DNA of 64,000 nucleotides from Deltaproteobacteria bacterium (GCA_020852955.1 JADYZW010000047.1:24436-88435), one strand, 5' to 3'; positions 24,002 through 61,946 are shown, numbered from the stretch's first letter. The notes: generated by a model from the sequence alone, not told the origin. Numbers and translations: made by a program.

Positions 24002-24037
24002 CCGCGCCCACCCGTTGCGAAACATGAGGAGAAGATC

Positions 24038-26053: not shown

Positions 26054-26137
26054 GCCTGTCGGGTCGACGGCGCGGCACTATGCAGAAGGCGCCGCGCGCC
26101 TGTCAAATCATCCGCCCGCGTGCTAGCCCTGCGGACC

Positions 26138-27019: not shown

Positions 27020-27094
27020 TCCCGGCCGCGTCACGCCCGCTTCGCGAACCCGCGTTGCGCGAACGTGGGTCGATATGGGACAACGGTGGAGTTC

Positions 27095-29155: not shown

Positions 29156-29167
29156 CGGTACACCGAC

Positions 29168-33011: not shown

Positions 33012-33018
33012 GGCCGCC

Positions 33019-33999: not shown

Positions 34000-34095
34000 G
34001 GCCCCGCTTGTAGGTGATATTCCGATGCTGCACCAGTCGGCGCGCCGGTTGCAGCTGGCGCGCGGCGCGTGTTACTCGGCGCACCGGGGGTGGGG

Positions 34096-35421: not shown

Positions 35422-35501
35422 CGGGCGTTCGAACGATCCGCACCGCTACAGTGTCGCGCTCGCATCCAGGCAACCGGACGCGGAACTCCGGGCCCGAAAA
35501 C

Positions 35502-35540
35502 GCGAGGGGACCAACCCCGGTGCGGGATCGGCCCCCTCGC
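35502..35540. terminator. Bidirectional stem-loop between convergent genes
   Basis: An 8-bp stem, gcgagggg (35502-35509) paired with cccctcgc (35533-35540), with an inner cccg/cggg pairing. It lies in the 139-bp gap between the convergent cytochrome and Cys-rich genes. Confidence 0.45.
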
Positions 35541-35560
35541 CGCGCTGCAGCGTCAGCCGG

Positions 35561-37915
35561 TCACGGAACCTTGATCACCGTCTCGCGCTGGATCAGGGCA
35601 CCCGGCCCGGCGAAGCCGGCCGCGATGTCGATCGCGCCGTTGTTCTGCGGCACGCAGTAGACCGCGGCCGTGTCCCTCGTGGGGGTGCCCGGCACGCCCT
35701 CGCGGATGATGCCGCTGTTCACGAAGCACGCACGCGGCCTGAGCTGGCAGGTGTCGCCCGCCGTACAGTAGGGGCACCCGGCCGATGGCTGGCAATCCGC
35801 GGCGGTGTTGCAGCCGCGGATCGGCGTCAGCACGCAGAACTTGTCGGGCGGGCCGTCCGTGCACTTGCCCTCTTGATTGGAGTCGGTGTCGGACGGATCG
35901 GCGCGGCAGTCCGCCGGATGGCAGAAACCCCCGCCGGTGCAATCGGCGTTGGTGTCGCACGGCGCGGCGTCGTTGTCGCCGCCGACGCACGCCTCGAAGC
36001 AGGCATTCGGCCGCTTCTGCCCCGAGCAGAAGCATTGGCCGTTGCACGTGCCTCCCGGGCACTCCGACGGCACCGTGCACGACCGGCCTTCGCTCGTACC
36101 GCCGACGCACGTCTTGTTGCCGAACCCGGCTTCGGTACAGTTGAAGTTGGGGACCAGGGTGACGGTCCCGGTCGTGCGCGGGTTCGCGTTGATGTCGAGC
36201 CCGGTGCCGTTCGGATTGGTGATGAAGTCGGTGTCGGGCGGACAGTCGACGCTCGTCAGGCCGAAGAACGGCAGCTCGCCCCCGAATGGCGGCGTACGCC
36301 GGCACGCTTTGTCCCTGCGGGTGCCGTCGCTGCACACGGCCTCCGTGACGCACGGGCCCATGCCGGGGGCGCAGTCGGTGTCGTCGTCGCAGCGCTGGCG
36401 ATCGACGCCGCAGAAGTTCCCGCATACGGGACAGGGCTTGTCCTGCGTGATCGCGAGGCGCGTGATCGCGCGCTGACGGACCTTCACGGCGGACGTGCCC
36501 GCCGTCAGGTTGACGGTGCCGACGACGTCCTCGCTGAAGAAGCTGACGTTGCAGACCGCGATGCCGCCGGCCGCCTGCGCGACGGGAGACGCATGGAAGG
36601 TCGTCGCGCAGAAGTCGCCCGGAGCGTTGCAGACCGGATCGTTCACGTTCCTGAGGTCGCACTTCTTGTTGATGTCCATGAAGCAGTGCGGACCCGTCGC
36701 GGTGCGCTCCTTGCGACAGGTTCCCTGACCGAGGCCGGCGCAGATCGAATCCGAGGTGGTCCCGGACGGTGCGTTCTCGGCGACGCTGCACGGCGAGTGC
36801 GGCGCGAGCGAGCAGCTCGGGCCGGCATTGCAGAGGCCGCTCATGTCGCAGTCGTAGAGATCGACGAGGAAGCCGCCCTCCTCCACGACGTCGCCGTCGG
36901 CGCTGACCCCCGTCCAGCCGTTGTCGACATCGGCGTTGGCGTCTTCGATGACCACCATGCGAGGCTTGGTCTTGCAGAGGCACGCGAAGAAGCCGTCCGG
37001 TGTGGTGGCGGTGCCGCACTGGCCCGGACACGCCGAATCGTCCGGCCCGTCACACTCCTCGTTCAGGTTGTTCACGACGTTGTCGCCGCAGAGGCCGCCG
37101 CGCGTGGCGTACTCGTAGTCGACGAGATCGGGGGGCACGATGATCTCCGGGCCGTCCGTCAACACGGTCGTCGCGTCGATCAGGCACGTCGCCGCGCCGG
37201 CGGCGTCCGTCTGATCGGGCGTGCACACCTTGAGGGTCGAAACCTGGGGGTTCGTGCACTTCTTCTCGAGGGCGGCCGTGAGCTTGTCCTTGCACTTCTG
37301 GATGGCGGCGCTCGTCTTCGGGTCGTTGGTGGCGCAGTAGTCGGGCGGCACGCCGAGCGGCTTGCCCTTGAGGATCGCGTCGCGGCACTTCGAGACGTTC
37401 TTGAGGACGCAGCTCGAAAACCCGGTCGTCTGCTTCGCGACCTCGGTCTGGCACTTGAGGTCGTCGCCGAGCGGCCCCGTCACGGTCGCGTCGTAGGCGA
37501 GCGCCATCGCCGCGGTCACGAACGCGTCGTGGGTATCCTTCATGCAGAGCTGGAGGTCGGCGGTCGTGAAGCCGTCGCCGGGATCCGGGTCCGTACAGGG
37601 GCCCGGGAATCCCATCAGGTCGAAGTCGGTCGGCGTGAGCGCGCAGGATTTCGCGATGGAGCTCGAGAGCTTTCCGTCGATCTTCGCGAGGGCCCCAGCG
37701 TCCGGCGTCGGACAGGTGCCGTCCTTCAGGTGGGTGTTCTTGCACTTCTGCAGCAGCTTCAGCTTCCCGATCGTGTACTTCTGGGAAGCCTTCGCGCTCG
37801 CGAGCAGGCACTTCAGACGATTCTTGCTGAGCTGCGCGTCGGCGTGCGACGCGGTCAGCATGACCGCGGTCAGTCCGGCGACGATGAAGGACGCTCGGGT
37901 TCGGCCGATCGTCAT
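35561..37915 (-). CDS. Large secreted cysteine-rich protein (about 60 Cys) of unknown function
   Basis: Signal peptide MTIGRTRASFIVAGLTAVMLTASHADA. My hand count gives about 62 Cys in 784 aa and no CxxCH. It contains one Myxococcus-type Cys repeat (CGDNVVNNLNEECDGPDDSACPGQCG). Confidence 0.7.
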   Translation of the reverse strand: MTIGRTRASFIVAGLTAVMLTASHADAQLSKNRLKCLLASAKASQKYTIGKLKLLQKCKNTHLKDGTCPTPDAGALAKIDGKLSSSIAKSCALTPTDFDLMGFPGPCTDPDPGDGFTTADLQLCMKDTHDAFVTAAMALAYDATVTGPLGDDLKCQTEVAKQTTGFSSCVLKNVSKCRDAILKGKPLGVPPDYCATNDPKTSAAIQKCKDKLTAALEKKCTNPQVSTLKVCTPDQTDAAGAATCLIDATTVLTDGPEIIVPPDLVDYEYATRGGLCGDNVVNNLNEECDGPDDSACPGQCGTATTPDGFFACLCKTKPRMVVIEDANADVDNGWTGVSADGDVVEEGGFLVDLYDCDMSGLCNAGPSCSLAPHSPCSVAENAPSGTTSDSICAGLGQGTCRKERTATGPHCFMDINKKCDLRNVNDPVCNAPGDFCATTFHASPVAQAAGGIAVCNVSFFSEDVVGTVNLTAGTSAVKVRQRAITRLAITQDKPCPVCGNFCGVDRQRCDDDTDCAPGMGPCVTEAVCSDGTRRDKACRRTPPFGGELPFFGLTSVDCPPDTDFITNPNGTGLDINANPRTTGTVTLVPNFNCTEAGFGNKTCVGGTSEGRSCTVPSECPGGTCNGQCFCSGQKRPNACFEACVGGDNDAAPCDTNADCTGGGFCHPADCRADPSDTDSNQEGKCTDGPPDKFCVLTPIRGCNTAADCQPSAGCPYCTAGDTCQLRPRACFVNSGIIREGVPGTPTRDTAAVYCVPQNNGAIDIAAGFAGPGALIQRETVIKVP

Positions 37916-38155
37916 GTGGAGGCCTCCTCTCTCGGCATGGGCGTACGTTGGCTTGGGGCTCGTCGGCTAGCAGCGCTCGCTCCATCGCTGCAAGCCGCAT
38001 CGCGGCGTAGGGATTCCGACATCGGCACTGGTCTCCGGAACGGGGACGCCCCCCGGGGACTTGGCGGAAGCCTAGCAGACTCGGATTGCCGAACGGGAGG
38101 GAAAAATTACATCGCAGGTCGAAAAGCAACCGCGCTGCCCGCGCCGGCCCCCGGG

Positions 38156-41100
38156 CTAGCGACGTCCCGGGAGGAGACGCTCTTCCTCGGGCGCGGCCGG
38201 CTGTACGACGGGCCCGCCGATCGGGCCCATGCCCGCCTCGGGAAGCTCGGGGCGCAGAAAGGCCCGAGGCTTCGCGGGGGCCGAGTTGGCGACCGTGAAG
38301 ACCTCGCCCCCGTGCATGAAGAGGCGTTCCATTTCGGGGCGGGTGAAGGGCCGCGCGCCGAGCCGGCCGAATACGGCCACCTGATGGCCGCTCTCGTCGA
38401 CCGCTCGGTCGCGCTCGAGGCCGCGGGACAGCGCGACGGCCGGCCCATGCGTGTGGCGGGTGGCGATGAGCCGCGGCGTCGGGATCGGACTGAATCCGGC
38501 GCTTCCCGGGGTCTCTCCCGGAGTGACGAGTTGGAGGATGCGCAGGCCGTTCTTCCCGTCCGCGACATAGGCGAAGACGCTGGCGTCGGTGCCGCCGACC
38601 CGCACCGCACGGGTATCGTCGAGGGTGCCATTGGCGTCGAACATCTGGAAGAGGACGGGCCTGGTCGGGCGTTCGACGTCGACGATCGCGAGGCCCTGCG
38701 ATCCGGCCGGCACGTAGGCGTAGGTGCGCGAGACGGTGAGGTCGCCGGCTTCCGCAATGTCGAGCGACGCCACGAAGCGCGGCTGGTCGAGGCGCGTCAC
38801 GTCGAGCACGCGCAGGCCGCGGGCGTCGGTCACGAACGCGTAGCGGAACTGGACCTGCACCGCGCGGGGCTCGACGACGTCCGGCGCACCCACCTCCGAC
38901 ACGATCCGCGGATGGACCGGGTCGGCGATGCTCACGACGACGAGGCCGCGCTTACACAGCACGTAGGCGTACTCGCCGGCGATCGTGACGTAGCGAGCGT
39001 CGTCGAGCGCGCCCGCCGGATTGAAGCTCGCGACCTTCTCCAGGAAGTTGTTGAGCGGATCGCCATCGGCGAGCATGTCGACGTCCACCACGACGAGCCC
39101 TTCGACCTTGTCGCTCACGTAGGCGTACTTGTAGATCGGGTGCATCGGCTGCTCTTCGTTCGCCGGGTCGCGCTCGCGCCCGTAGTGGATCGGTTGGTTC
39201 GTCGGCAGCGCGACGCCGGTGGCCCACGGCGTCTTCACGTAAGCGCGTTGCCCGAGCGGCGAGACCGGAGCGGTGACGATGCGCTCCGAGAAGCCCTTGT
39301 TGTCGGTGTTGGCGACGTCGAAGACCCGGAACCCGCCCGGCCCGTTGGCGACGTAGAGGTACTCGCCGCGGAGTTGGACCGACTGCACGTCGACGGCCCG
39401 GCTCGCGAGGTCGACGCCCGGATGCTCGTACGCCTCCTGGAGTTCCAGGTCGTGATCGAGGTGGGTCTGGAAATTGTCGGGGTACACCATGCGGTGCAGG
39501 TTCGAGCCGATCACCGCCTGCGGCTCGTCCCATTCCGTCACGGCGACGGCCTCGAGCCCGTGCTCGCCCTCGCCGACCCACGCGAAGCGGCCGACGAAGT
39601 TCACGAAGTTCGTCCCGAGCGTCAGCACCTGCGCCATCCAGGCGTTGTTGTCGCCGTTCGCCGACACGTGGCAGTCGTCGCACTGCCGCGTCTCCCTGGC
39701 GCGCACCGTGTGCGCGAAGTGGGCGTTGAACGCCTGCGAGCTGTAACCTTCGGCCGAGACGGGCGGCTGCTGGTAGTACTGCCGCTCGCGGTTCGCGTTG
39801 GTGGTGCTGATGATGACGGCGCTCGACGAGCGCACCGGCGCGACCGTGTGGCCCTTCACCGTGCTGTGCCGGCCGAGCATGAAGATGTCGTGGCGCAGCA
39901 CTTGCGGATTGTACGAGGTCCAGTTGCGGGTCTCGCCGCCGTCGTAGTGCTTCTTCGCGATCTTCCAGTTCGCCTGCTGCGGCAGGTGGCAGCCGAAGCA
40001 GCTCGTCACCCACGACGTGTGGCACGCGATGCACGACATCTTGTCGGCGCCGTGCGCGAGCGCATCGGTCTTTTCGGGCACGTCGCCCCAGGTCTTGCCG
40101 TCGGCGCGCATCGTCTTCGCGAGGCGCGCCTTCTCGCTGTAGTGCTTGGAGAGCGGGTCGATCACGTCGACGACCTGCGGCACCTCCCACTCCTTGCCCT
40201 CCTCGAGCATCGAGCGCTGAATCAGCTCGCCGCCGATCCATTCGAAGCGCCGCTCGCCCCAGGGCGTGAGGCCGGTGAGGAGGTTCGTACCCCCGTCCGG
40301 CGCCGCCGGGCCGCTCGTCGTGACGGTCGCCCAGGTGTTCACGGTCCCGTGACAATCGACGCAGCCGATCTCGATCGCGTCGGGATACTCGCCGTAGATC
40401 TTGCCGTTGGAGTGGACGTCCTGCTGGAAGTGGCAGTCCACGCAGTGCATGCCCTTCTCGAGGTGGATGTCCTTCAGGTGCACGGCCTTGTCGAACTTCT
40501 TCGGGTCGTTCGGGTCGACGATCGTGCCGTTCTTGTCGAGGAGATTGCCCTTGCGGTCCTGGCTGTAGACGGCGCGGAAGATCCAGCCGTGGCCGTGATA
40601 GTCGGCGAAGGTCGTCTCCTTGGTCTTGGCATTGAGGTCGCTGACGTTCTTCAGAAACTCGCGGTCGGTCCAGAGTCCGCGGATGGCGGCCTCTTCCGGG
40701 TTGTGGTCGAGGCTCCTGTGCATGGGCTCGTAGTCCGCGACGTTGAGCGGCCATGGCTTGTCCACCGTCCGATGCCGCTGCTCGGCCGGCCAGAGCAGCT
40801 GGCCGTCGGTCTCGTAGTCCCACATCTGGTAGCCGAGGAACGTGTTCACGAACGAGTTCGGCTGGTGCATGTGGCAGACCATGCACTGGCTCGTCGGGAT
40901 CGCGCGCGTGAGGCGGTGCTCGATCGGGTGACCGGACTCGTCCTTCGGGATCGTCGGGTCCTTGCCGAAGTAGCGGCCGTCGTGGCCGTATTTCGCGTAC
41001 GACGCGGAGTGCGCCGGATCCTTGTCGTTGGCGTAGACGACGTGGCAGCCGGTGCAGCCGCTCGAGCGATAGTCGCCGGGGTGGTCGTTGGTGCCGAGAA

Positions 41101-42082
41101 ACGAGAGGTGCGGGTCGTTCAGGCGCGTCTTCTGGATGTTCAGCACGCCGGCGCTGATGCGGAGGTCGGTGCCGAGCCCGCGCGTGCCGAACTTCATGTC
41201 CGGCTTGCCGGGGAGATCGGGGAGCGGGCCGAGCCCAGGGTTCCCGACCTCGGACACGACCGAACGGTCGATCTTGCCCCCGCGCTCGAAGGCGCGGAGC
41301 GGATCGGGAGGCTGCGCGACGTTCCAGGCCGGAAGCGGCAGGAGGAACGGCAGCACGCCCTTGCGCCGCTCCTCGGGCGTCGGCGGCGGCACGGTATTGA
41401 GCTTCCGCGGCTTCCCGTCCCTCGTGTACGACTCGCCGACGATGTAGCGCTTGGCCGGCAGGATCCCGTTGTTGTACGCGGCGCCGCCCCAGAGCAGCGC
41501 CGACGTCGTCATGAGGCTGCGCTCGACCTGGCGCACCTCGTTCAGGTGGCACCCGCCGCAGGTCTCCGGAGCGACGCGGAGATCCCCGGGATTGATGAAC
41601 TGCAGGTATTCCGGCGACTCCTCGTTCAGCGCGGTGTAGCTGCGCTCGGGATTCGCGGAGCTGATCCGGTCATGGTTCTTCGGATCGCGCCAGACGTCGG
41701 GGCGGCGCGGGGCCACGTGCGCGTCCCGCTGCGCCGCCGCGTACTCGTCGGTGCCGGGCTTGGCGCCGCGCGCGCTCGCCTGCACGTTGCCTCCGTGGCA
41801 ATCGACGCAGCCGAGGTTCACCTGCCCCGAGACGTGCATCGGCTCGATGCCCTGATGGCAGGAGAGGCAGCCGGCGCTCTTCGCGTCGGCCTCGCCCTGC
41901 GTCTGGCGCAGGAGCTTCGGCGCGCTGTCCGGGATGCCGCCGACGCCCGGCTCGTGTGCCGCCGCCCCCGCCCCGGTCGCCGTCGTCTCGTCGGCCCGTA
42001 CGGGGCCGGTCACGCCGGTGGCCGCCATGACCGCCAGCGCCGACGCCACGCCGACGCCGACCCATCGCGTTCGATCGCTCAT
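38156..42082 (-). CDS. Decahaem c-type cytochrome fused to a C-terminal LVIVD-repeat beta-propeller
   Basis: Start re-called at ATG 42082 (gggagggtgga RBS; signal peptide MSDRTRWVGVGVASALAVMAATGVTGPVRA). The ten CxxCH motifs are CLSCH, CVDCH, CGGCH, CTGCH, CMVCH, CVDCH, CVDCH, CIACH, CFGCH, CDDCH. Six or more LVIVD-like units lie at about 38525-39380 (YLYVANGPGGFRVFDV, YAYVSDKVEGLVVVDV, YAYVLCKRGLVVVSI, YAFVTDARGLRVLDV, YAYVPAGSQGLAIVDV, FAYVADGKNGLRILQL). Confidence 0.85.
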   Translation of the reverse strand: MSDRTRWVGVGVASALAVMAATGVTGPVRADETTATGAGAAAHEPGVGGIPDSAPKLLRQTQGEADAKSAGCLSCHQGIEPMHVSGQVNLGCVDCHGGNVQASARGAKPGTDEYAAAQRDAHVAPRRPDVWRDPKNHDRISSANPERSYTALNEESPEYLQFINPGDLRVAPETCGGCHLNEVRQVERSLMTTSALLWGGAAYNNGILPAKRYIVGESYTRDGKPRKLNTVPPPTPEERRKGVLPFLLPLPAWNVAQPPDPLRAFERGGKIDRSVVSEVGNPGLGPLPDLPGKPDMKFGTRGLGTDLRISAGVLNIQKTRLNDPHLSFLGTNDHPGDYRSSGCTGCHVVYANDKDPAHSASYAKYGHDGRYFGKDPTIPKDESGHPIEHRLTRAIPTSQCMVCHMHQPNSFVNTFLGYQMWDYETDGQLLWPAEQRHRTVDKPWPLNVADYEPMHRSLDHNPEEAAIRGLWTDREFLKNVSDLNAKTKETTFADYHGHGWIFRAVYSQDRKGNLLDKNGTIVDPNDPKKFDKAVHLKDIHLEKGMHCVDCHFQQDVHSNGKIYGEYPDAIEIGCVDCHGTVNTWATVTTSGPAAPDGGTNLLTGLTPWGERRFEWIGGELIQRSMLEEGKEWEVPQVVDVIDPLSKHYSEKARLAKTMRADGKTWGDVPEKTDALAHGADKMSCIACHTSWVTSCFGCHLPQQANWKIAKKHYDGGETRNWTSYNPQVLRHDIFMLGRHSTVKGHTVAPVRSSSAVIISTTNANRERQYYQQPPVSAEGYSSQAFNAHFAHTVRARETRQCDDCHVSANGDNNAWMAQVLTLGTNFVNFVGRFAWVGEGEHGLEAVAVTEWDEPQAVIGSNLHRMVYPDNFQTHLDHDLELQEAYEHPGVDLASRAVDVQSVQLRGEYLYVANGPGGFRVFDVANTDNKGFSERIVTAPVSPLGQRAYVKTPWATGVALPTNQPIHYGRERDPANEEQPMHPIYKYAYVSDKVEGLVVVDVDMLADGDPLNNFLEKVASFNPAGALDDARYVTIAGEYAYVLCKRGLVVVSIADPVHPRIVSEVGAPDVVEPRAVQVQFRYAFVTDARGLRVLDVTRLDQPRFVASLDIAEAGDLTVSRTYAYVPAGSQGLAIVDVERPTRPVLFQMFDANGTLDDTRAVRVGGTDASVFAYVADGKNGLRILQLVTPGETPGSAGFSPIPTPRLIATRHTHGPAVALSRGLERDRAVDESGHQVAVFGRLGARPFTRPEMERLFMHGGEVFTVANSAPAKPRAFLRPELPEAGMGPIGGPVVQPAAPEEERLLPGRR

Positions 42083-42123
42083 CGTCCACCCTCCCATGCC
42101 GCGCCTGCCCCGCATGGGCTTCA

Positions 42124-43842
42124 TCAGAAGACCAGCACCACTTCGGTGCCGACCTGATAGAGCGTGTTGCTCTCCGTAATGTCCGTGAGCCCCCCGAACG
42201 GCTGGAGGATCGCCCCGAAGCCCTTCACGATGACGTTGTTGTTGAGGAAGGGCCGGTACTCGACGCCAAGGCTCAGGTCGATGCCGATGTCCTGGCGAAC
42301 GTCGGGCTGCTTCAGCAGGATCTGGAGCGGCTCGGTGTCGACGAACCGGAGGTAGGTGGCGTTGCCGATCAGGCTCACCTTCTGGGTGAGATCGGCCGTC
42401 GCGCCGACGTTCACCATCAGGATGCCGGGATTCACGAAGTTCGGCTGGCCCTGGGTCTTCGAGCTGCGCAGATCGGGCACGACGCTGTTGCGCTGCATGA
42501 GCGCGACGCCGCCGCGATCGGTGACGCGGATCGATTGGCGCTGCCAGTAGCCGAAGTTGCCGCCCATGATCTGCGGGTTGTCGAGGATCGTGTCGAAGCC
42601 CCGCGCGGTGTCGTCGCGCGGGTCGCTGTCGCCGGACGACCAGAAGACCGACGCCTGGTAGCGCATCCAGTCGCGGTCCATCGAGAGCTCGAGGAACGCC
42701 TGCTGCGCCTCGATGTCCACGTCGCGTCCCGCGATCGGGTTCGACGTGTCGTGACCGAGGGCCTGGTAGAAGGCGTGGCTGACGTTCACCCAGCCGAGGT
42801 GCCCCTCGCCGGTCCACCCGAGGTAGAAGACGTCGAGGTTGTGGGGCCGCGCGATGCCGACGGGATCGGGCCGGACCAGGAAGCCCTGGTTGTCGAAGAC
42901 GAACCCCGCGTCCTTCCCGTCGTCGTTCAGGTAGTGGACGCTGAACTGGGTCGTGTAGCCGAGCTTCAGGAAGTCCTGGATGTAGAGGTTGCCGATCGCG
43001 ATCTGCTGGTCGCGCAGACCGAACGTGTTGAGGTCCGAGTTCGTGTCCTTCTCCGCCGGATAGAAATACGCGAGGTTGTACTGGTAGCGGTTCGAATTGG
43101 CGTTGCCGAAGAACCGGATGCCCTGGTTCACGTCCGAGAAGACGAGGCTCCGGAAGTCGCTGTTGAACGGCTGCCGGCCGATCTTCGTCGAGAGGAAGTC
43201 GTAGTTCACCGAGGTGTCGAGGAGGTGGATCTCGACGAAGGCCTCCTGCAGGGCCGCGTGGGTCGTGAGCCGATCGGTCGCGTCGCGGACGTCGGGATCG
43301 ACGAGACCGTTCTCACCGGTCGCGAGCAGGTTCACGTCGAAGGCGCCCGCGAGGACGATCTGCCATTCGAACGGCTTGAACGACGTCTGGCCCTTCTGCA
43401 GCTCGAATCGCGTCACGAACTTCTGATCGAAAAGGATCGCGTTGCGGTTCCCGAAGAAATCGAAGCTGCCCGGGTCCTCGGTGGACACGCCGCTCGGCGA
43501 CGGCGCGCCTCGGCCCTCGACGCTCGTCTTCGAAATGCCGGTCAGCTTCATGAAGACGTCGTCGCCGAGGATCGGTATGTCGCCCTTGAGCACGTTCTGG
43601 TTGTAGGGATCCCACCAGTGGCCCTTGGTGTTGAGTTGGTAGGGCGGCAGCTCCATCCGCCAGCGATCCTCGAAGAGCTCCGTCGCGGGCGTATCGCTGC
43701 CGACCGCCGGGCTCTCGACCGTGACGCTCGGTCCGCCCCCGGGAGCGTCCTCGGCCCGCGCTGACGGCGCGGCGAGCGCCCACGCGAGCACGGCGGCGCA
43801 GGCGACGAACGGAACGACGTCGTGACGCGCGCGGCGGGCCAT
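42124..43842 (-). CDS. Outer-membrane beta-barrel protein (porin-like partner of the cytochrome)
   Basis: Start re-called at ATG 43842 (MARRARHDVVPFVACAAVLAWALAAPSARA signal peptide). It shows an alternating amphipathic strand pattern, abundant Tyr/Asn/Gly/Asp, and a C-terminal ...YQVGTEVVLVF ending in Phe, as in the OMP beta-signal. Confidence 0.75.
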   Translation of the reverse strand: MARRARHDVVPFVACAAVLAWALAAPSARAEDAPGGGPSVTVESPAVGSDTPATELFEDRWRMELPPYQLNTKGHWWDPYNQNVLKGDIPILGDDVFMKLTGISKTSVEGRGAPSPSGVSTEDPGSFDFFGNRNAILFDQKFVTRFELQKGQTSFKPFEWQIVLAGAFDVNLLATGENGLVDPDVRDATDRLTTHAALQEAFVEIHLLDTSVNYDFLSTKIGRQPFNSDFRSLVFSDVNQGIRFFGNANSNRYQYNLAYFYPAEKDTNSDLNTFGLRDQQIAIGNLYIQDFLKLGYTTQFSVHYLNDDGKDAGFVFDNQGFLVRPDPVGIARPHNLDVFYLGWTGEGHLGWVNVSHAFYQALGHDTSNPIAGRDVDIEAQQAFLELSMDRDWMRYQASVFWSSGDSDPRDDTARGFDTILDNPQIMGGNFGYWQRQSIRVTDRGGVALMQRNSVVPDLRSSKTQGQPNFVNPGILMVNVGATADLTQKVSLIGNATYLRFVDTEPLQILLKQPDVRQDIGIDLSLGVEYRPFLNNNVIVKGFGAILQPFGGLTDITESNTLYQVGTEVVLVF

Positions 43843-44543
43843 CACCAACTCCCCCACAGCCACAGCGCCGCCGCCACCAGCGCCCCGATCGCGAGCACGA
43901 GCCACCGCCGGCCGCCGGGCTTCGCGCCCGTCCCGGCTCCCTCTTCCGCCGCCGGAGCGCCGCGCTCGTCGAGGAAGATCAGCTCGTCGCCTCCGAGCTG
44001 CACTCGCATTTTGTGCGTCAAGGGAACCTCCTCCTTCACCTGTGTGCCGTCCACCAGCACGACCTTCCCGGTGACCGGCGTGAGGTACCAGTGGCCGTCG
44101 CGCACCGTCAGCTGCGCGTGCTCGCGCGACGCCGTCTGCGAATAGAGCCGGAGGTCGCACGAGGGCAGCCGGCCCATCAGATAGTGCGCGCGCTCGAGCG
44201 TGACGATGTCGGAGCGTCCCGGCGGCTGCACGCGCTGGAGGCGCGCCGGCGGCGGCGCCTGCGGCTGGAGGTCGGCGAGCAGGATCGTGTGCTCCGCGAA
44301 GTCGCCGCCCGCGGCCGGAGCCGTCGGCACGATCGTCCCGGGCGTCGCGGACGTCTTCGGCATCGGAGGCGGCGTCGCCGCGAGGCGCGTCGACTCGTCG
44401 AGCGGCGGCGCCGGGCTCGCGGGCGCGGCGGGTGTCGGCGGGGACGGAGGCGACGAGACTTGCGGCGCCCCCGGCAGCTTCGGCGGCGCGCCGCCGATCC
44501 GCGTGTGCTCGTCGAATCCCGTGTCGTCCCCGTCCTTCGCCAT
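43842..44543 (-). CDS. Tail-anchored FHA-domain protein
   Basis: A Pro/Ala-rich disordered N-terminus is followed by an FHA core (YLMGRLPSCDLRLYSQTASREHAQLTVRDGHWYLTPVTGKVVLVDG) and a single C-terminal TM helix (WLVLAIGALVAAALWLWGSW). Its stop overlaps the barrel ATG by 1 nt (TGATG). Confidence 0.8.
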   Translation of the reverse strand: MAKDGDDTGFDEHTRIGGAPPKLPGAPQVSSPPSPPTPAAPASPAPPLDESTRLAATPPPMPKTSATPGTIVPTAPAAGGDFAEHTILLADLQPQAPPPARLQRVQPPGRSDIVTLERAHYLMGRLPSCDLRLYSQTASREHAQLTVRDGHWYLTPVTGKVVLVDGTQVKEEVPLTHKMRVQLGGDELIFLDERGAPAAEEGAGTGAKPGGRRWLVLAIGALVAAALWLWGSW

Positions 44544-44587
44544 CGCTCGTGCTCGCGCCTACCTCGCCGCGCCTCGGCGACGCGCCG

Positions 44588-46432
44588 TCACTGATTGGGC
44601 TGCCGGTTGAACTTGAGGTACGGCAGCCGCACGCCGCGCACCTTCACCCGATCCGCGCGGATCGCCGACGGCGGCTCGAAGCCCGGTGGGGCGTTCGCGC
44701 CCGCGTTCGTCACGATGTCGTCCTGCTCGACACCGTCGCCGCTGACGCCGAAGCCCCCGATCAGCGTGCCGTCCCGGTAGAGCGGGGCACTGCCGGGAAA
44801 GAAGACGATGCCGTTCTGCCGTCCGTTCTCCGGCTCCTGGCCGTTGGTGCACGGATTCGCCGAGTCGAAGAGGAACACGCGCCGGAACGGGCCGGGCTGC
44901 GTGCCGTCGATGCCGGACGGAAAGAGCGGCTGCGCGCCGAAGCTCAGCGTGCGGTTGGTGATCGCCGTCCCGGGCTCGTAGGCCGTGCCGATCGTGACGT
45001 CGAGGCCCGGGCTGTCCCGCGTGTCGACGGGATCGATCGCCGGGTTGCTGAACCAGATCACGTTGCGCGACTTGGCGACGGCGACGTCGATCGAGAAGAC
45101 GGTCGCATCGTCCATACGATAGAGGCCGAGCAGCACGCCGTTGGCGTCCGAGACGGCGAGTATCATCGCGGTGCGCTCCTCGAGCGGCAGCCGGATCGCG
45201 GCGCGGGTCCTGCGCGCCTCCGCCACGCCCGTGTCGATGATCGCGCGCACCTCGGCGGCGCCGATCGGCGGCACGCCCGGCGAGGAATCGCGCGGACCGA
45301 CGAGCCAGCCGCCCGGCACGACGTCCGCGGCGGGCGCGCCCGCCGGGTCCATCACGAACGAGAGGGCGCGCGCGACGGGGCCCGAGCCGGCCTCGACCGG
45401 GGGATCGTTCGCGACCTCGGGCACCTCGATGCCGTCGATGAAGATCACCGGGTCGATGCGCTGAACGTTCGGCAGAATGCTGAAGGTGCAGGGACTCACC
45501 GGGTCCGCGCAACACGCCGGGCGTGCGATCGCGGTGTTGGCGCAGACGTTCACGAGCCCCTTGTCGACGACGGTCGGCACCACCGCCTTCACGTCGCCGG
45601 CGAAGGCGCGTGCGGCGAACTCGCCGACGTCGAAGTCCGGGTCGCCGTCCTGCCGGCGCAGCACGACGTCGCCCTCGGGCGCGGCCTCGGAATCGGGTCC
45701 GGGATCCTGGCCGCGCAGGAAGACGCCGATGCCGCCCGCCAAGCGTCCGTTCTTGAAGATCGGCACGCCGCCCGGAAGGGTCGCGATGCCGGTCGTGCAT
45801 CCGGCGCGCGACCCGCCGCTCTCGCACGCGAGCGGCGCGGCGCCGGCGAGATCGACGAGCGTCGCCGCGAGGCTGCGCGCGCGCGGGATCACCTGGTCCG
45901 CCTCGAAGAGCCCGTCGCCCGCTGCCGCGTCGAAGCTGCAGCCGCGGTTCGTGTTCTCGATGCCGAAGAGGGCGGCCGCCCCCGTGTTGTCGATGCGCGG
46001 CGGGAAGTGGATGTCGCTGATGAAGCGGATCGAGCGCGAGGTGAGCGGCGTCTGGTCGGCGCTGAAGAAAGCGGCGGTGCGCGCCAGCTGGGTCGCGAAG
46101 CTCGCGACCGCGCAATCGGTGCCCGGCGTCGGGTTCGGCGCCTCGCAGGCCGTCGCGTCGATCGCGAAGTTGGCGCCGACGCCGAGGATCACGCCGCGGC
46201 GGTCGGTCACGGCGACGACTAGATCGCGGTCGACCGCCCGCGCCGCGTGCTCCATGAGCGAACGCACCTCGTCGCGCTCAAGCGTCGGCGCCGTCGCCGC
46301 CGGCGGGGGACCCGTGCCGGGACCCTCGCCTTGTCCGGCGCCGCCGCCGCACGCGGCCAGCATCGTCACGAGCGCCGCTGCCAGCCACTCCGACCGCCTC
46401 CCGTACTGCGCCCCCATCACGGCTCTCCGCAT
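44588..46432 (-). CDS. Lipoprotein with two GlcG/HbpS-like (DUF336, haem-degrading/haem-binding family) domains
   Basis: Start re-called at ATG 46432 (…WLAAALVTMLAAC lipobox). Domain 1 reads LVVAVTDRRGVILGV...LPGGVPIFKNGRLAGGIGV. Domain 2 reads MILAVSDANGVLLGLYRMDDATVFSIDVAVAKSRN...PLYRDGTLIGGFGVSGDGVEQDDIV. Confidence 0.7.
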   Translation of the reverse strand: MRRAVMGAQYGRRSEWLAAALVTMLAACGGGAGQGEGPGTGPPPAATAPTLERDEVRSLMEHAARAVDRDLVVAVTDRRGVILGVGANFAIDATACEAPNPTPGTDCAVASFATQLARTAAFFSADQTPLTSRSIRFISDIHFPPRIDNTGAAALFGIENTNRGCSFDAAAGDGLFEADQVIPRARSLAATLVDLAGAAPLACESGGSRAGCTTGIATLPGGVPIFKNGRLAGGIGVFLRGQDPGPDSEAAPEGDVVLRRQDGDPDFDVGEFAARAFAGDVKAVVPTVVDKGLVNVCANTAIARPACCADPVSPCTFSILPNVQRIDPVIFIDGIEVPEVANDPPVEAGSGPVARALSFVMDPAGAPAADVVPGGWLVGPRDSSPGVPPIGAAEVRAIIDTGVAEARRTRAAIRLPLEERTAMILAVSDANGVLLGLYRMDDATVFSIDVAVAKSRNVIWFSNPAIDPVDTRDSPGLDVTIGTAYEPGTAITNRTLSFGAQPLFPSGIDGTQPGPFRRVFLFDSANPCTNGQEPENGRQNGIVFFPGSAPLYRDGTLIGGFGVSGDGVEQDDIVTNAGANAPPGFEPPSAIRADRVKVRGVRLPYLKFNRQPNQ

Positions 46433-46461
46433 GGCTCCGGACCCTCCAAGGATGCGCGCGC

Positions 46462-48882
46462 TCAGGCGGGTGGAATCGTCAACTTCACGGGACCTTTGAT
46501 CTTCGCGACGCACGCCAACCGATACTTCACGGGATTCCAGTCGAGCTGCCGCACCTTTTCGATGGTGGGCCGCTCCATGCCGCCCGGATCGGGCGGCACG
46601 AAGTGCTCGGCGCCCTCGATGATCTCGACCGTGCAGAGGCCGCACTGGCCGATCTTGCACTCCCAATCGAGCGGCTCTTCGTGATGATCGCGCGGCGCGC
46701 CGTCCTTGCCGACCTTGCAATCGGGAAAGCGCGTGACGAGCTCGTGGAAATACGCGTGCAGCAGGTCCTGGTCCGGCGCGACCGGGATCGTGAGCTTGTA
46801 CTTCTCGTAGTCGAGCGCGGCGACGAGCCCGCCCGCGGTGGCGGCGGCGAGCGCGGCCGGAGCGGGTGCGGCCGGAGCGGCCGCGGCAGGCGGCGCGGCG
46901 GCGTGCGGCGCGGCGACGACCACGTCGCTCGGCGCGAGCTTCGATACCGGCGCGAACCGTTCGAAGCGGAACCGCTTGCTCGCGACCCGGAACTCGTCGC
47001 CGTTCGCGAGCCGGGTCGGCGCCGTCAGCTTCACGTACGTGCCGTTCTTGCTCCCGAGATCGAAGATGCCGAGCGCGCCGCCCTCGATCCGCAACTGCGC
47101 GTGGCGCCGGGACAAGCTCAGATCCGCCTTGTCGAGGGACACCGCCTCGACCCGGCCGACGATCATCCCCTTGCCTGGGATCGGATAGGTTTCCCGCTGC
47201 ACGCCCTCGGCGTCGAAGTGGGTGACGGCCCAGCCGTTCCCCTGCTCCACGACCATGAGGATCTGCGCGCCGATCCAGACGAGGTCGTTCGCGACGAGCG
47301 GCCGCCCCTCCTGCCCTTTGGCGCGGAGCCACACGCCGGCCCCGCCGCTCTCGTCCTCGAGCGCGTAGCCGTCGTCCTGGCGGGTCAGGAGCGCGTGCGT
47401 GTCGGCCATGTAGACGTCGTCGGCGCAGGCGATGTCGGGCGTCTTCCTGCCGATCGTGACCTGATCCTTCGTGAGCGGGAACGCCTCTTCCGGCGAGTCG
47501 TCGGGATGGAGGCTCACCAGCTGCGCCGCGCTCGCCGGACGCTTGGCGGCCTCGGCGTGCGACGGCGCCGGCGGCACGACGACCGGCGGCGGCGGAGCGC
47601 TCGGCGCCACGGACGGCGCGCTCGAGGGCGCGGCGGCCGCCGGCTTCGGCGGCGCGGGCGCCGGCGTCGGCGTCGGCGCCACCTCGGACTTCGGCACCTC
47701 CATGCCGGCGCGCAGCGCGATCGCCTCGACCGCCTTCACCGCATCGACCATGGCGGCCTTGATGTTGCGCTTCTCGACGACCTGCTCGTACGAGCCCGCG
47801 TCGTCGAAATCCTTGCAGCGCAGATATTTCGGCCCGCGCGCGTCGCCCACCAGGAACACGCCCGGCAACGACACCTCGCCGTCGTGGTTCACCAGCATCT
47901 GCGGTCGGTTGTTGAGGAGCGGGATCTTGATGCCGCAGCCTTGCAGCAGCTTCACCGGCAGGTCCTCGCCGATGCAGGCCACCACCTGATCCTTGGCGAA
48001 CTCGAGGTGGACGGTCTCACAGGGCCTGCCCGCCGAGATCTTGCGGTCGATCCGCACCGACAGGTACTCGAGCTTGTCGTCGGCGGTGACCACCGCGACG
48101 GGCTCCGAGAACGCGAGATAGCGGACGTTGCCGTTCCCGACGTAGGCGGAGAAGAACACCTCGGAGAGCGCCCGCGACACCTTCGGCATGCCGCCGCCGC
48201 GATACGACCAGTAGATCGCGCTCTGATCCTCGCCCGCGATCTTCGCGCCCGAGATCGCGATCACCGCCTCCGCCGCCGACGTGCCGCCGCCGATCACGAG
48301 CGCGGGCCTCCCGACGTAGTCCTTCGCGTCGTCGAGGCGGAACGCGATGCCGTCGGTGTTGCCGGGGATGTCGAACCGGCGCGGCACGCCCGCGCCGATC
48401 GCGAGGAGGACATTGCGCGCTTGGTAGCGCTCTTCCTCGCCGGTGCGATGGTTCCAGGTCCGGACGCTCCACACGCCCTCGGGCAGCCGGTCGAGCCCCG
48501 TGAACTCGTGGCCGATCTTCGCGGTCAGGCCGTACTCCTTGTACTTGGCCTTCCAGACCTTCACGAGATCGTCCTTGTCGATGTCGTCGAACGCGAGGGC
48601 CGCGAGCATCGGCCCGCCGGCCGGGAACTGGAGCTTGTCGCCGCCGCCGTAGCTCGGAAGGATCTGCTTCTCCTTCGGGTAGTCGCGGATGCGCTTCATC
48701 AGGTCGTCGTAGTCGACGACCAGGCAGGAGAGTCCGAGCTCCTTGCAGCGCACCGCCGCCGCGGTGCCGGCGGGACCGCCGCCCGCGACGAAGACGTCGA
48801 CGACGTCCGGCACGGCAGCCGGCTGGTCGACCTTCAGCGTCCCTCGGCGGGTATAGTCCGCCTCGTCTATCTTGTCGGACAT
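46462..48882 (-). CDS. FAD/NAD(P)-binding oxidoreductase fused to two FHA domains and a plant-type [2Fe-2S] ferredoxin domain
   Basis: Start re-called at ATG 48882 (MSDKIDEADY). FAD fold VDVFVAGGGPAGTAAA, second nucleotide fold PALVIGGGTSAAEA, then GVFLVGDA. After a Pro/Ala linker come FHA1 (VTIGRKTPDIACADDVYMADTHALLTRQDDGYALEDES) and FHA2 (MIVGRVEAVSLDKADLSLSRRHAQLRIEGGALGIFDLGSKNGTYV). The C-terminal CKIGQCGLC...LAC matches the C-x4-C-x2-C...C ferredoxin pattern. No signal peptide. Confidence 0.8.
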   Translation of the reverse strand: MSDKIDEADYTRRGTLKVDQPAAVPDVVDVFVAGGGPAGTAAAVRCKELGLSCLVVDYDDLMKRIRDYPKEKQILPSYGGGDKLQFPAGGPMLAALAFDDIDKDDLVKVWKAKYKEYGLTAKIGHEFTGLDRLPEGVWSVRTWNHRTGEEERYQARNVLLAIGAGVPRRFDIPGNTDGIAFRLDDAKDYVGRPALVIGGGTSAAEAVIAISGAKIAGEDQSAIYWSYRGGGMPKVSRALSEVFFSAYVGNGNVRYLAFSEPVAVVTADDKLEYLSVRIDRKISAGRPCETVHLEFAKDQVVACIGEDLPVKLLQGCGIKIPLLNNRPQMLVNHDGEVSLPGVFLVGDARGPKYLRCKDFDDAGSYEQVVEKRNIKAAMVDAVKAVEAIALRAGMEVPKSEVAPTPTPAPAPPKPAAAAPSSAPSVAPSAPPPPVVVPPAPSHAEAAKRPASAAQLVSLHPDDSPEEAFPLTKDQVTIGRKTPDIACADDVYMADTHALLTRQDDGYALEDESGGAGVWLRAKGQEGRPLVANDLVWIGAQILMVVEQGNGWAVTHFDAEGVQRETYPIPGKGMIVGRVEAVSLDKADLSLSRRHAQLRIEGGALGIFDLGSKNGTYVKLTAPTRLANGDEFRVASKRFRFERFAPVSKLAPSDVVVAAPHAAAPPAAAAPAAPAPAALAAATAGGLVAALDYEKYKLTIPVAPDQDLLHAYFHELVTRFPDCKVGKDGAPRDHHEEPLDWECKIGQCGLCTVEIIEGAEHFVPPDPGGMERPTIEKVRQLDWNPVKYRLACVAKIKGPVKLTIPPA

Positions 48883-48962
48883 CGACCCCGATCCCTTCTC
48901 GGGAACACCACGCCGCCCCACCGTAGAAGCCGCGCCTTCCTACTGATTCGGCGTCGAAGTTG

Positions 48963-50504
48963 TCAAGGATTCGCGGCCGGACGCGAGCGGAAGTAGTCGA
49001 CGATCGCGGCCGCGAAGGCGGGCACCGTGTAGTCCTTCGGCTCGACATCGACCGCGAGGCCGAGATCGCGCGCCGTCGCCGCGGTCACCGGACCGATACA
49101 TCCGACGGCGACGCCCGCGAGCACCGCGCCCAGGTCGCGGCCCGGAAAGAGCCCCGCGAAGTGCGTGACCGTACTCGAGCTCGTGAAGGTGACGAGGTCG
49201 GGACGCGGCGAGCCGGCGAAGAGCGCGGGCGCGGCCGCGGCCTCCGGCGGCAGCACCGTCCGGTAGGTCGCGACGTCGTCGACGAGCGCGCCCGCCGCCC
49301 GCAGGCGCTCCGGCAGGACCCGGCGCGCGCCGGCGGCGCGGGCAAGGAGCACCCGCTTCCCGGCGACGCCGCGCGCGACGAGGCCGTCGGCGACCGCCTC
49401 GGCGCGGTACTCCCCGGGCGTGAGCGCCGCCGCGAGCCCGCGCGCTCCGATGGCAGCCGCCGTCGCCGGCCCGATCGCCGCGATCGCGACGCCGGCGAGC
49501 TCGCGGACGTCGCGCCCGAGCGCGCGCAGGCGGTCGAAGAACACCTCGACGCCGTGCGGGCTCGTGAGCACGAGCCAGGCATAGCGGCCGAGGTCGGCGA
49601 GCGCGGCGTCCCACGCGGCGAACGACGCGGGAGGCTCGGGCGCGATCGTCGGCAGCGACACCACCTCGGCGCCCTCGCCCTCGAGGAGTGCGGCGAACGC
49701 CTCGGCCCGTCCGCGCGGCCGCGTCACGACGACGCGACGGCCGAAGAGCGGGCGGCGCTCGAACCAGCCGAGCTCCGCGGCCAATCCGACGACTCCCCCG
49801 ATCACGACGAGCGCCGGCGGCCGCAGTCCGGCGGCCGCGACGAGCGCCGGCAGTGTCGCAACGGTGCCGCGCACCACGCGCTGGCGCGCGGTCGTGCCCC
49901 AGCGGATCGCCGCGGCGGGCGTCGCGGGGTCGAGCCCGCCGGCGGTCAGGCGGTCGAGGTTGCCAGAGAGTTGCAGCACGCTCATGTAGAGCACGAGCGT
50001 GCCGCCCTGCCGCGCGAGCGCCTCCCACGGCACGGCACGGTCGCCCTCGCGGTCCGCCTCGTGACCGGTCACGAAGCTCACGACCGACGCGTGATCGCGG
50101 TGGGTGAGCGGGATCCCCGCGTAGGCCGGCGCCGCGACGGCCGCCGTGACGCCCGGCACCACCTCGAACGGAACGCCGGCCCGCACGCACGCGCGCGCCT
50201 CCGCGCCGCCACGACCGAACACGAAGGGATCGCCGCCCTTGAGGCGCACGACCGAGCGTCCGGCGCGCGCGTATCCGAGCATCGTCTCGGTGATCTGCGC
50301 TTGCGTGAGGCGCACGCCGGAGCCGTGCTTGCCGGTGAAGATCACCTCGCAGTCGGGTCGGGTGAACGCGAGCAGACTCGGGTTCGAGAGGGCGTCGTAG
50401 ATCACGACGTCGGCGCTCTCGAGACGGCGCTTGCCGTGGAGCGTGAGGAGCCCCGGGTCGCCCGGCCCGGCGCCGACCAGGCTGACGCGGCCGCCGGCGC
50501 TCAC
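48963..50504 (-). CDS. cobA/hemD: Bifunctional uroporphyrinogen-III C-methyltransferase / uroporphyrinogen-III synthase
   Basis: N-terminal SUMT (VSLVGAGPGDPGLLTLHGKRRLESADVVIYDAL, VRLKGGDPFVFGRGGAE) with a C-terminal HemD-like half. Confidence 0.88.
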   Translation of the reverse strand: MSAGGRVSLVGAGPGDPGLLTLHGKRRLESADVVIYDALSNPSLLAFTRPDCEVIFTGKHGSGVRLTQAQITETMLGYARAGRSVVRLKGGDPFVFGRGGAEARACVRAGVPFEVVPGVTAAVAAPAYAGIPLTHRDHASVVSFVTGHEADREGDRAVPWEALARQGGTLVLYMSVLQLSGNLDRLTAGGLDPATPAAAIRWGTTARQRVVRGTVATLPALVAAAGLRPPALVVIGGVVGLAAELGWFERRPLFGRRVVVTRPRGRAEAFAALLEGEGAEVVSLPTIAPEPPASFAAWDAALADLGRYAWLVLTSPHGVEVFFDRLRALGRDVRELAGVAIAAIGPATAAAIGARGLAAALTPGEYRAEAVADGLVARGVAGKRVLLARAAGARRVLPERLRAAGALVDDVATYRTVLPPEAAAAPALFAGSPRPDLVTFTSSSTVTHFAGLFPGRDLGAVLAGVAVGCIGPVTAATARDLGLAVDVEPKDYTVPAFAAAIVDYFRSRPAANP

Positions 50505-52734: not shown

Positions 52735-52736
52735 GG

Positions 52737-53558: not shown

Positions 53559-53563
53559 GGCGA

Positions 53564-61933: not shown

Positions 61934-61946
61934 GGGGCGCGCGCTG

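Follow-up and report, generated by a model that had tools for sequence, protein, structure and literature searches.

A 64,000-nucleotide (nt) stretch of DNA from a Deltaproteobacteria bacterium (GCA_020852955.1 JADYZW010000047.1:24436-88435; G+C content approximately 70%), hereafter the window, carries at positions 35561-48882 a train of six minus-strand genes, g1 to g6, which includes an outer-membrane β-barrel (g4), a secreted decahaem cytochrome c with an LVIVD β-propeller (g5) and a lipoprotein with two HbpS/GlcG-like domains (g2). Comparison with related loci indicates that this train is the outer half of a larger envelope-spanning set of seven core components, split into two clusters here, and that the conserved core of the train itself is made up of g4, g5 and g2, which recur in Acidobacteriota, Planctomycetota, Nitrospirota, Calditrichota, Binatia and cultured Sphingobium. 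The remaining core components are the proteins C, B and A, encoded contiguously elsewhere in the window, and the cytochrome D. The interpretation that we favour, with guarded confidence, is regulated electron export from NAD(P)H through g1, C, B, A and D to g5 at the outer membrane.

Conserved gene content

A first-pass annotation of the window had drawn the six genes as the unit. Open reading frame (ORF) models reproduce each of its genes at the same positions and each of its gaps (29, 44, -1, 41 and 240 nt, the negative value being a TGATG overlap), but the limits of the unit had to be redrawn: four conserved partners lie outside 35561-48882, at 27824-31941 and 34090-35421, as do signalling genes at 26120-27799, and g3, g6 and the fusion form of g1 are confined to close Binatia-like relatives.

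The barrel has more than 4600 relatives in databases and occupies at least 597 loci among species-representative genomes, of which the 80 best barrel matches were taken; loci were compared by tblastn of the window domains and by clustering of ORFs. According to the labels of the metagenome-assembled genomes (MAGs), the best 80 loci are mostly from Acidobacteriota, with others from Planctomycetota, Nitrospirae, Verrucomicrobiia, Bacteroidota, Chlorobiaceae and Binatia. The closest relatives of the window locus are in MAGs labelled 'Deltaproteobacteria bacterium', 'Polyangiaceae' and 'Candidatus Binatia'.

Forty-six loci have at least 8 kb of flank on either side of the barrel (full-flank loci), and in every one of them a g5 homologue lies immediately 3' of the barrel on the same strand, with a gap of 8-91 nt in six annotated loci. 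Since these 46 loci come from many phyla, the adjacency is more than chance, and the concern that the synteny might not be conserved in any relative can be set aside. A g2 homologue is present in 41 of the 46, which places the HbpS-like protein with the barrel and the cytochrome, as had been proposed. B and the iron-sulfur (FeS) domain of C were each found in 28 of the full-flank loci and D in 19.

The seven core genes form a single co-directional operon in four loci (L009, a Nitrospirae MAG; L084; L085, a Calditrichaeota MAG; and L086). The order is C, B, A, HbpS-like, barrel, g5, D in L009, L084 and L086, and HbpS-like, barrel, g5, D, C, B, A followed by a double-FHA protein in L085, so that all four carry a D homologue directly 3' of g5 in the same operon. 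In the window C, B and A are contiguous on the minus strand, running from 31941 to 27824, and g1 lies approximately 15 kb from them.

The outer-membrane module

The barrel protein g4 (42124-43842, minus strand; 572 amino acids (aa), C-terminus VLVF) is without a Pfam or NCBIfam match, and the Pfam result is empty even at E <= 5. Its AlphaFold2 model is a β-barrel of approximately 18 strands (predicted local distance difference test (pLDDT) 82.7, predicted template modelling score (pTM) 0.79) with a long, highly conserved loop at residues 403-473. The top Foldseek match of the model is AlgE (4b61, 3rbh; E = 2.4e-16, TM-score normalised to the target approximately 0.68, identity 12-14%), followed by the 18-strand channels ChiP and OccD, and no MtrB-type barrel is among the 50 matches listed. 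Some g4 homologues have faint precomputed matches to PF13372 (Alginate_exp). As modelled, g4 is an 18-strand AlgE/OprD-like channel and not an MtrB-type sheath; with approximately 18 strands it would more probably provide passage for a substrate or product, or a dock for g5, than a sheath for a cytochrome, and a barrel of this size could not enclose a protein like g5.

The gene for the cytochrome, g5 (38156-42082, minus strand; approximately 1308 aa), has alternative starts at 42124 and 42049. The protein contains ten CxxCH motifs spread over approximately 730 residues, in addition to the LVIVD propeller (83.9 bits against a Pfam cut-off of 20.2). All ten motifs and 14 further His residues are kept at 92% or more in 60 homologues, identity across phyla is approximately 46-62% over approximately 1250 residues (tblastn against the loci), and there are at least 7999 database matches at E <= 1e-10, with thousands in metagenomes. 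The signal peptide of g5 is of the signal-peptidase-I type, without a lipid anchor, and its homologues likewise have ordinary signal peptides. Pfam and NCBIfam scans gave no MtrA-type family match. An AlphaFold2 model built on a 38-sequence alignment reached a pLDDT of 56 in the cytochrome part and exceeded 90 in the propeller only, and Foldseek with this model returned generic propellers only. When the proteins were searched by sequence against solved structures, g5 matched just octahaem nitrite reductase, weakly and in its N-terminal part (E = 0.002), A and D gave marginal matches only and g4, B and g6 gave nothing meaningful; no pentahaem c552 chain was matched by g5 or by D, the latter weakly resembling C554.

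The C-terminal 110 residues or so of g5 (38156-38480), which follow the propeller and lie outside the structure model, contain near-invariant residues across phyla, including a DRDRAxDESG motif. This tail could serve in contacts with the barrel or with g2.

The third core protein of the train, g2 (44588-46432, minus strand; 614 aa), has the lipobox LAAC and an HbpS-like domain in its C-terminal half (64.3 bits, E = 1.4e-17, against a Pfam cut-off of 25). The N-terminal half is a second, diverged copy of the same domain (hhalign of N-half against C-half 99.8%, E = 7e-28). Of the solved structures, EfgA is matched best by g2 (E = 2.8e-11), and 22 of 59 g2 homologues are lipoproteins. On scanning with hidden Markov models (HMMs), the FHA, GlcG/HbpS and LVIVD assignments of the first-pass annotation all scored above the Pfam cut-offs, and its Fer2 assignment was marginal.

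The locus had originally been interpreted as a porin-cytochrome type of electron-transfer system. The pairing at the heart of that proposal stands, as the barrel and the decahaem cytochrome are obligate and conserved partners (46/46), but a barrel of 18 strands makes it unlikely that a cytochrome is threaded through it as in the Mtr and Pcc systems. MtrB has 26 strands and OmbB is predicted to have approximately 20. If the system were nevertheless a classical conduit of the MtrAB or Geobacter Pcc kind, part of g5, or g5 together with D, would sit inside the barrel and pass electrons to minerals or humics, and this would suit both the invariable adjacency of the barrel and multihaem cytochrome genes and the presence of further multihaem cytochromes nearby. 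The AlgE, ChiP and OccD matches of the modelled barrel do not suit it, nor does a cytochrome of 1300 residues with a globular propeller and no lipid anchor, unlike the compact MtrA, and the Pfam and NCBIfam scans gave no match to the MtrB or MtrA families; such a conduit is therefore judged unlikely.

The inner-membrane module and probable electron entry

At the head of the train, g1 (46462-48882, minus strand; 806 aa) encodes a cytoplasmic protein in which a flavin adenine dinucleotide (FAD)/NAD(P)H-type oxidoreductase is joined to a pair of FHA domains and a ferredoxin domain of the [2Fe-2S] kind. The FAD domain matches Pyr_redox_2 (E = 6.9e-18) and Pyr_redox_3 in Pfam and belongs to the TrxR/YpdA type, which oxidises NAD(P)H. 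One FHA domain is at residues 574-633 (58.2 bits, E = 1.2e-15; the PF00498 cut-off is 20.7 bits), and a second FHA-like stretch is matched by Yop-YscD_cpl at residues 467-547 (E = 5e-11). Fer2 passes marginally, at 22.3 bits against a cut-off of 21, and a plant-type CX4CX2C...C motif is visible in the sequence; this ferredoxin domain occurs only in the closest relatives (L001, L002/L003, L004 and L005). The protein is probably the electron-entry module.

Protein C (30073-31941, minus strand; 622 aa) is also cytoplasmic. It has two cyclic nucleotide monophosphate (cNMP)-binding domains (cNMP_binding, E = 7.1e-19), an FHA domain (53.9 bits, E = 2.6e-14) and matches to Fer4 families, in which part 16 Cys fall into four groups in a poly-[4Fe-4S] arrangement of the DmsB/HydN type. 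Protein B (29168-30076, minus strand; 302 aa) is a five-helix membrane protein with a 135-residue cytoplasmic insert. Four of its His residues are invariant in 17 homologues from several phyla, and they form two pairs, H81/H95 and H281/H295, each 14 residues apart, on two transmembrane helices. The homologues show weak matches to DUF4405 (12/17), Ni_hydr_CYTB (10/17) and Ferric_reduct (9/17), with best E-values of 3e-6 for Ni_hydr_CYTB and 1.5e-5 for DUF4405; the B protein of the window falls below the Pfam cut-offs, with 16.1 bits against 28 for Ferric_reduct and 15.5 against 26.7 for DUF4405. From this His pattern B is predicted to be a dihaem b-type membrane cytochrome, a classic design for carrying electrons across a membrane.

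Protein A (27824-29155, minus strand; 443 aa) is a periplasmic decahaem cytochrome c, anchored by one N-terminal transmembrane helix, with ten CxxCH motifs and Pfam matches to Cytochrome_C7/CIII; it also matches QrcA and TmcA weakly, both far below the family cut-offs. Its homologues adjoin the barrel-cytochrome pair in other phyla and bear an N-terminal FHA domain in L009, L078, L086 and L087. Protein D (34090-35421, plus strand; 443 aa) is a secreted C554-like cytochrome (Cytochrome_C554, E = 4.1e-11) with five haem motifs, four CxxCH and one CxxxxCH.

Domain fusions connect these proteins to one another. FAD, cNMP-binding and Fer4 domains form a single protein in L009, L084, L086 and L087; residues 27-355 of g1, which make up its FAD domain, align to the FAD domain at the N-terminus of the L084 protein (E = 2e-17) and C aligns with the cNMP and Fer4 parts of the L084 protein (E = 3e-15 and 3e-31), indicating that the entry protein is split in the lineage of the window and tying g1 to C-B-A. 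The cNMP-FeS protein is in turn fused to B in L055 (361-4362) and in 13 other loci of Blastocatellia/Pyrinomonadaceae, giving proteins of 770-870 aa, and the product of the gene next to this fusion joins an FHA domain, by way of a transmembrane helix, to a heptahaem cytochrome. The three kinds of fusion, FAD-cNMP-Fer4, cNMP-Fer4-B and FHA-transmembrane-multihaem, lend support at the level of sequence to a path that would run from FAD through FeS clusters and haem b to c-type haems. In the same Blastocatellia/Pyrinomonadaceae loci the HbpS-like gene is adjoined by small multihaem cytochromes and by a 250-aa protein without a Pfam match.

The fusions also bear on whether the system might be a respiratory reductase fed by quinol. 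B and A would then constitute a split CbcL-like quinol:cytochrome c oxidoreductase, g5 would reduce a soluble substrate that enters by way of the barrel, and C and g1 would regulate the system or supply a second input. The Ni_hydr_CYTB matches of ten of the 17 B homologues, which point to the FdnI/HydC cytochrome-b family, are consistent with this, as are the enzyme-like conservation of g5 and the substrate-channel fold of the barrel. However, the fusion of FeS protein with B in Pyrinomonadaceae and those of FAD with FeS domains in several phyla argue for a direct path from FAD through FeS to haem b, and no quinone-site motif was identified, though no search was aimed at one. A quinol-fed reductase accordingly appears improbable.

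FHA domains, cyclic nucleotides and phosphatase

FHA domains were detected by HMM scan in 24 of 84 sources (83 loci and the window), in four unrelated architectures. In Binatia-like relatives they are carried by g1, g3 and C; in L009, L078, L086 and Sphingobium they are attached N-terminally, on the cytoplasmic side, to the A-type cytochrome; 14 Blastocatellia loci have them in the heptahaem cytochrome fusion; and L029, L038, L045 and L085 encode stand-alone double-FHA proteins.

Two genes divergent from A add to the signalling repertoire. The first (26120-27019, plus strand) encodes a 299-aa protein with an adenylate/guanylate cyclase catalytic domain (Guanylate_cyc, E = 1.1e-16) and an FHA domain (E = 1.1e-13), a candidate for producing the cNMP signal; CHASE2-cyclases occur near the system in eight other loci and in L084. 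The second (27086-27799, plus strand) encodes a PP2C-type Ser/Thr phosphatase of 237 aa (PP2C_2, E = 2.4e-19), a homologue of which was found near the system in just one of 82 other loci, and its membership of the system is tentative.

The cyclase-FHA gene is adjoined by an MscS-type channel with a cNMP-binding domain, beside which are a Rieske-FAD reductase fusion (Rieske, Pyr_redox_2 and Reductase_C) and a CMD-family protein (24578-26053, minus strand, and 22457-24391, plus strand). The channel and its neighbours could be further targets of the same cNMP signal.

Lineage-specific genes and the end of the train

The two accessory genes of the train are specific to this lineage. g3 (43842-44543, minus strand; 233 aa) encodes a tail-anchored FHA protein (46.3 bits, E = 5.7e-12; one C-terminal transmembrane helix at 214-232), homologues of which are present only in the close relatives L001, L004 and L005. 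g6 (35561-37915, minus strand; 784 aa) encodes a secreted Cys-rich protein with a signal peptide and 62 Cys, for which no Pfam, NCBIfam or PDB match was found even at E <= 5, and it has homologues only in L001 and L004. These two loci, at approximately 80% identity, retain the gene order. A histidine kinase is inserted in L001 only, and no two-component pair is conserved beside g2.

A GC-rich 18-bp hairpin followed by UUUU lies 3' of g6 (35497-35540, minus strand); it is a likely intrinsic terminator and probably ends the six-gene train. The minus-strand RNA of 35422-35560 folds with -79.4 kcal/mol (z = -3.2), and none of 200 shuffled sequences folds as well. RNA folding revealed no similar hairpin in the 240-nt gap between g5 and g6, and a scan of 33900-49100 for consensus promoters and terminators gave nothing that exceeded shuffled controls.

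Occurrence on megaplasmids and in rearranged loci

A tblastn search of plasmids identified full-length g5 homologues, approximately 50% identical, in 12 strains of Sphingobium and one of Sphingopyxis, in each case on a megaplasmid, and partial matches in three cyanobacterial plasmid records. One of the Sphingobium loci, L087, is on the 959-kb replicon pMSHV (NZ_CP020539.1, 792330-824175) of Sphingobium herbicidovorans MH, an aerobic alphaproteobacterium from soil that is available in culture. This locus comprises two convergent groups of genes. The first encodes a C554-like cytochrome, a double HbpS-like protein that NCBI names 'heme-binding protein', the barrel (39% identity, E = 6e-112) and a g5 homologue; the second encodes an FAD-cNMP-Fer4 protein, a B homologue (hhalign 99.7%) and an FHA-multihaem cytochrome. 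A tblastn search of plasmids with B found nothing, although profile comparison finds the Sphingobium B homologue. The system in L087 is flanked by two ShlB/FhaC-type secretion genes and by a 2092-aa protein without a Pfam match.

Rearrangement was seen closer to the window in a Binatia relative of 60% identity (L002/L003, 17622-18347), in which the order is barrel, g5, HbpS-like gene, lipid desaturase, g1-like gene and FHA gene. A 426-aa protein without a Pfam match lies 5' of the barrel, and upstream there are also a Ser/Thr kinase of 1957 aa and an operon for an Mrp antiporter.

Neighbouring genes

A haem biosynthesis cluster (48963-54238, minus strand) lies 80 nt upstream of g1 on the same strand and contains a gene for a protein with a sirohaem-synthase N-terminal domain, a CcsA-like 'cytochrome c assembly' gene, hemA, hemC and a cobA-hemD fusion. 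The hem genes were considered as members of the system and rejected: the linkage is kept in L001 and is absent from L002/L003 and other phyla. Between the two halves of the system, at 32037-33999 (minus strand), are deoxyhypusine-synthase-like and NAD-dependent epimerase genes, which are also found 3' of D in L001 and have no obvious link to electron transfer.

At 17225-22143 a divergent pair of genes for an AhpC peroxiredoxin and a LysR-type, possibly OxyR-like, regulator is followed by genes for 6-phosphogluconolactonase, 6-phosphogluconate dehydrogenase and glucokinase. These functions, oxidative stress and NADPH production, are encoded a few kb from a putative consumer of NAD(P)H. The remaining neighbours, DUF5122 β-propeller and NosD-like β-helix proteins at 1839-6255 and an Mla lipid transport set (ABC ATPase, MlaE, MlaD and MlaA) at 61139-63963, are apparently unrelated.

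Discussion

The composition and linkage of the genes, their conservation and fusions, the cofactor motifs and the predicted barrel fold together suggest how the system may work, and it is from these that we infer an order of carriers, a direction of flow, a form of gating, a role for the barrel and a class of substrate. NAD(P)H would reduce the FAD domain of g1, and electrons would pass to the [2Fe-2S] centre of the same protein and on to the [4Fe-4S] clusters of C. They would cross the inner membrane via the two b-haems of B, move to the membrane-anchored decahaem cytochrome A and from there to the soluble pentahaem cytochrome D, and finally reach g5, which would work at the outer membrane with the barrel and the lipoprotein g2. 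The barrel would admit or release a substrate, or else dock g5. Because export of electrons from NAD(P)H is downhill and would dissipate the membrane potential, entry would be expected to be gated, on the one hand by the cNMP-binding domains of C, fed by the neighbouring cyclase, and on the other by the binding of FHA domains to phosphothreonine, the PP2C phosphatase being encoded close by. This is the reading that we lean towards overall.

Several points weigh against it. For the direction of flow the only arguments are thermodynamic ones and the analogy with NADPH oxidases (NOX), ferric reductases and MsrQ. B resembles the quinone-reactive cytochromes b of the Ni_hydr_CYTB family and may have a link to quinol, and the strong conservation of g5 across phyla is more in keeping with an enzyme that has a defined substrate than with a simple wire. 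In no more than 28 of the 46 full-flank loci were B and C found within 10 kb of the barrel, and the choice of the 80 loci by best barrel match introduces ascertainment bias. The occurrence of the system in the aerobic Sphingobium makes a classical role in anaerobic mineral respiration doubtful. Finally, no Ser/Thr kinase is present among the approximately 55 window genes scanned, and kinase genes lie within or at the edge of the 10-kb flanks in approximately 8 of 86 loci, which may be chance in kinase-rich phyla. The coupling to Ser/Thr phospho-signalling that was originally suggested is thus strengthened by FHA fusions that recur across phyla and weakened by the lack of a kinase in the window, and control by cNMP has to be added to it.

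Flow in the opposite direction is a further alternative. Here g5 would oxidise a donor outside the cell or in the periplasm, for example Fe(II) or reduced sulfur or nitrogen compounds, and electrons would travel inward through A and B to the FeS and FAD proteins in the manner of Tmc and Hmc. The architecture does parallel TmcABC and Hmc, and A has its weak, sub-threshold matches to QrcA and TmcA, but reduction of NAD(P)+ needs a donor of very low potential, inward flow opposes the membrane potential, and the FAD domain belongs to a type that oxidises NAD(P)H. Electron uptake is considered a rather poor prospect. That the six genes are not one unit, with g1, g3 and g6 merely adjoining the barrel-cytochrome pair in this lineage, is suggested by the restriction of g3 and g6 to close relatives and by the 240-nt gap before g6, and can be dismissed as highly improbable given the gene order held in L001 and L004, the overlap of the g3 stop with the g4 start, the homology of the g1 FAD domain to a domain fused into the system elsewhere and the recurrence of FHA proteins in other phyla.

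Regulated electron export therefore remains the preferred reading, and a bolder form of it can be put forward tentatively: the system may represent a new class of envelope-spanning electron exporter that may bypass the quinone pool, combining a flavin and FeS entry switched by cNMP and phosphothreonine with a dihaem-b protein and a series of 25 c-type haems that leads to an outer-membrane complex of propeller cytochrome, channel and HbpS-like protein. Such an exporter would be found widely among aerobic bacteria of soil (Acidobacteriota, Sphingobium, Binatia and Planctomycetota) and would serve regulated extracellular or periplasmic reduction. Candidate roles are the reduction of Fe(III) or humics for redox balancing or iron supply, or the enzymatic production of extracellular superoxide.

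If this is true, abundant soil phyla, the Acidobacteriota foremost, would own a dedicated and regulated route that takes cytoplasmic reducing power to the cell surface, with a bearing on iron and humic cycling, on the production of extracellular reactive oxygen and on redox balance in aerobes. FHA and cNMP-binding domains placed directly on electron-transfer proteins would amount to an unusual and testable form of respiratory control. The system is widespread, strongly conserved and uncharacterised, and its presence as a whole in the cultured S. herbicidovorans MH makes knock-out genetics feasible.

Comparison with known systems

With MtrCAB, MtoAB/PioAB and the Geobacter Pcc systems the present one shares a barrel gene that adjoins a decahaem cytochrome gene and further multihaem cytochromes nearby. 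Its barrel, however, is predicted to be AlgE-like with approximately 18 strands, in contrast to a sheath of 20-26 strands; g5 has four times the size of MtrA and includes a propeller; there is no surface lipoprotein cytochrome; and the input is apparently provided by cytoplasmic FAD/FeS proteins rather than by the quinol dehydrogenases CymA, ImcH or CbcL. Because both the size of the barrel and the type of cytochrome differ, the system stands outside the Mtr/Pcc family. A verrucomicrobial porin-cytochrome cluster (He et al. 2017, PMC5615132) was set aside as well, its cytochromes being described as periplasmic with eight haem sites.

The predicted fold of g4 is like that of AlgE (PF13372) and of the 18-strand OprD/ChiP channels. 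Unlike AlgE, g4 has no PF13372 match and is always paired with a cytochrome, and no genes for alginate or polysaccharide synthesis were seen in the annotated neighbourhoods of the barrel loci. g2 belongs with HbpS of the Streptomyces HbpS-SenS/SenR system, GlcG, EfgA and the C-terminal domain of PduO (PF03928), and has two such domains; it differs from HbpS and GlcG in being duplicated, with large insertions, and lipid-anchored in a Gram-negative envelope, and in having no conserved SenS/SenR-like pair.

The inner module invites two further comparisons. TmcABCD, HmcABCDEF and CbcL likewise combine a periplasmic multihaem cytochrome with a membrane cytochrome b and a cytoplasmic FeS protein, but their proteins come from other families. 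Where Tmc and Hmc have cytoplasmic FeS subunits of the HdrD/CCG type, C belongs to the DmsB/HydN type; none of the three systems includes a cNMP, FHA or FAD part or an outer-membrane module, and electron flow through Tmc and Hmc is directed inward. In NOX, ferric reductases and MsrQ, electrons run from cytoplasmic NAD(P)H through flavin and two b-haems to an acceptor outside the cytoplasm, and the b-haem His pairs are 13-14 residues apart on two helices, as in B. The present system would differ from these in having FeS clusters between flavin and haem b, 25 c-haems as the acceptor and a five-helix B.

The closest parallel is the putative ptdABCDEFG operon of Elbon et al. (bioRxiv 10.1101/2023.11.21.568154), reported from marine and saline taxa (example proteins MBT5131319 to MBT5131325), the function of which 'remains completely unknown'. 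It comprises a pentahaem β-sandwich protein (PtdA), a porin, an FAD/NAD(P) oxidoreductase (PtdC), a tetrahaem cytochrome, a cNMP and [4Fe-4S] protein (PtdE), a ferric-reductase-like membrane protein (PtdF) and a decahaem cytochrome (PtdG). By architecture only, the FAD domain of g1 is like PtdC, C like PtdE, B like PtdF and A like PtdG, the gene order E-F-G equals C-B-A, and both sets lie beside a porin and smaller multihaem cytochromes; a protein-database search with B returned close relatives only and did not reach Ptd-type loci. Differences are the pentahaem β-sandwich PtdA and the description of the operon without a decahaem-LVIVD propeller, an HbpS-like protein or FHA domains. The claim that the gene combination matches no described system consequently has to be narrowed: its inner half has the same architecture as putative ptd genes, and literature searches found neither a description of the outer half, the module of barrel, decahaem-LVIVD cytochrome and HbpS-like protein, nor a functional study. 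The outer half (g2, g4 and g5) is absent from the ptd description, the partner of the barrel here being the decahaem-LVIVD cytochrome g5, and the inner half (the g1 FAD domain, C, B and A), judged from protein architecture and gene order, appears to match PtdC, PtdE, PtdF and PtdG.

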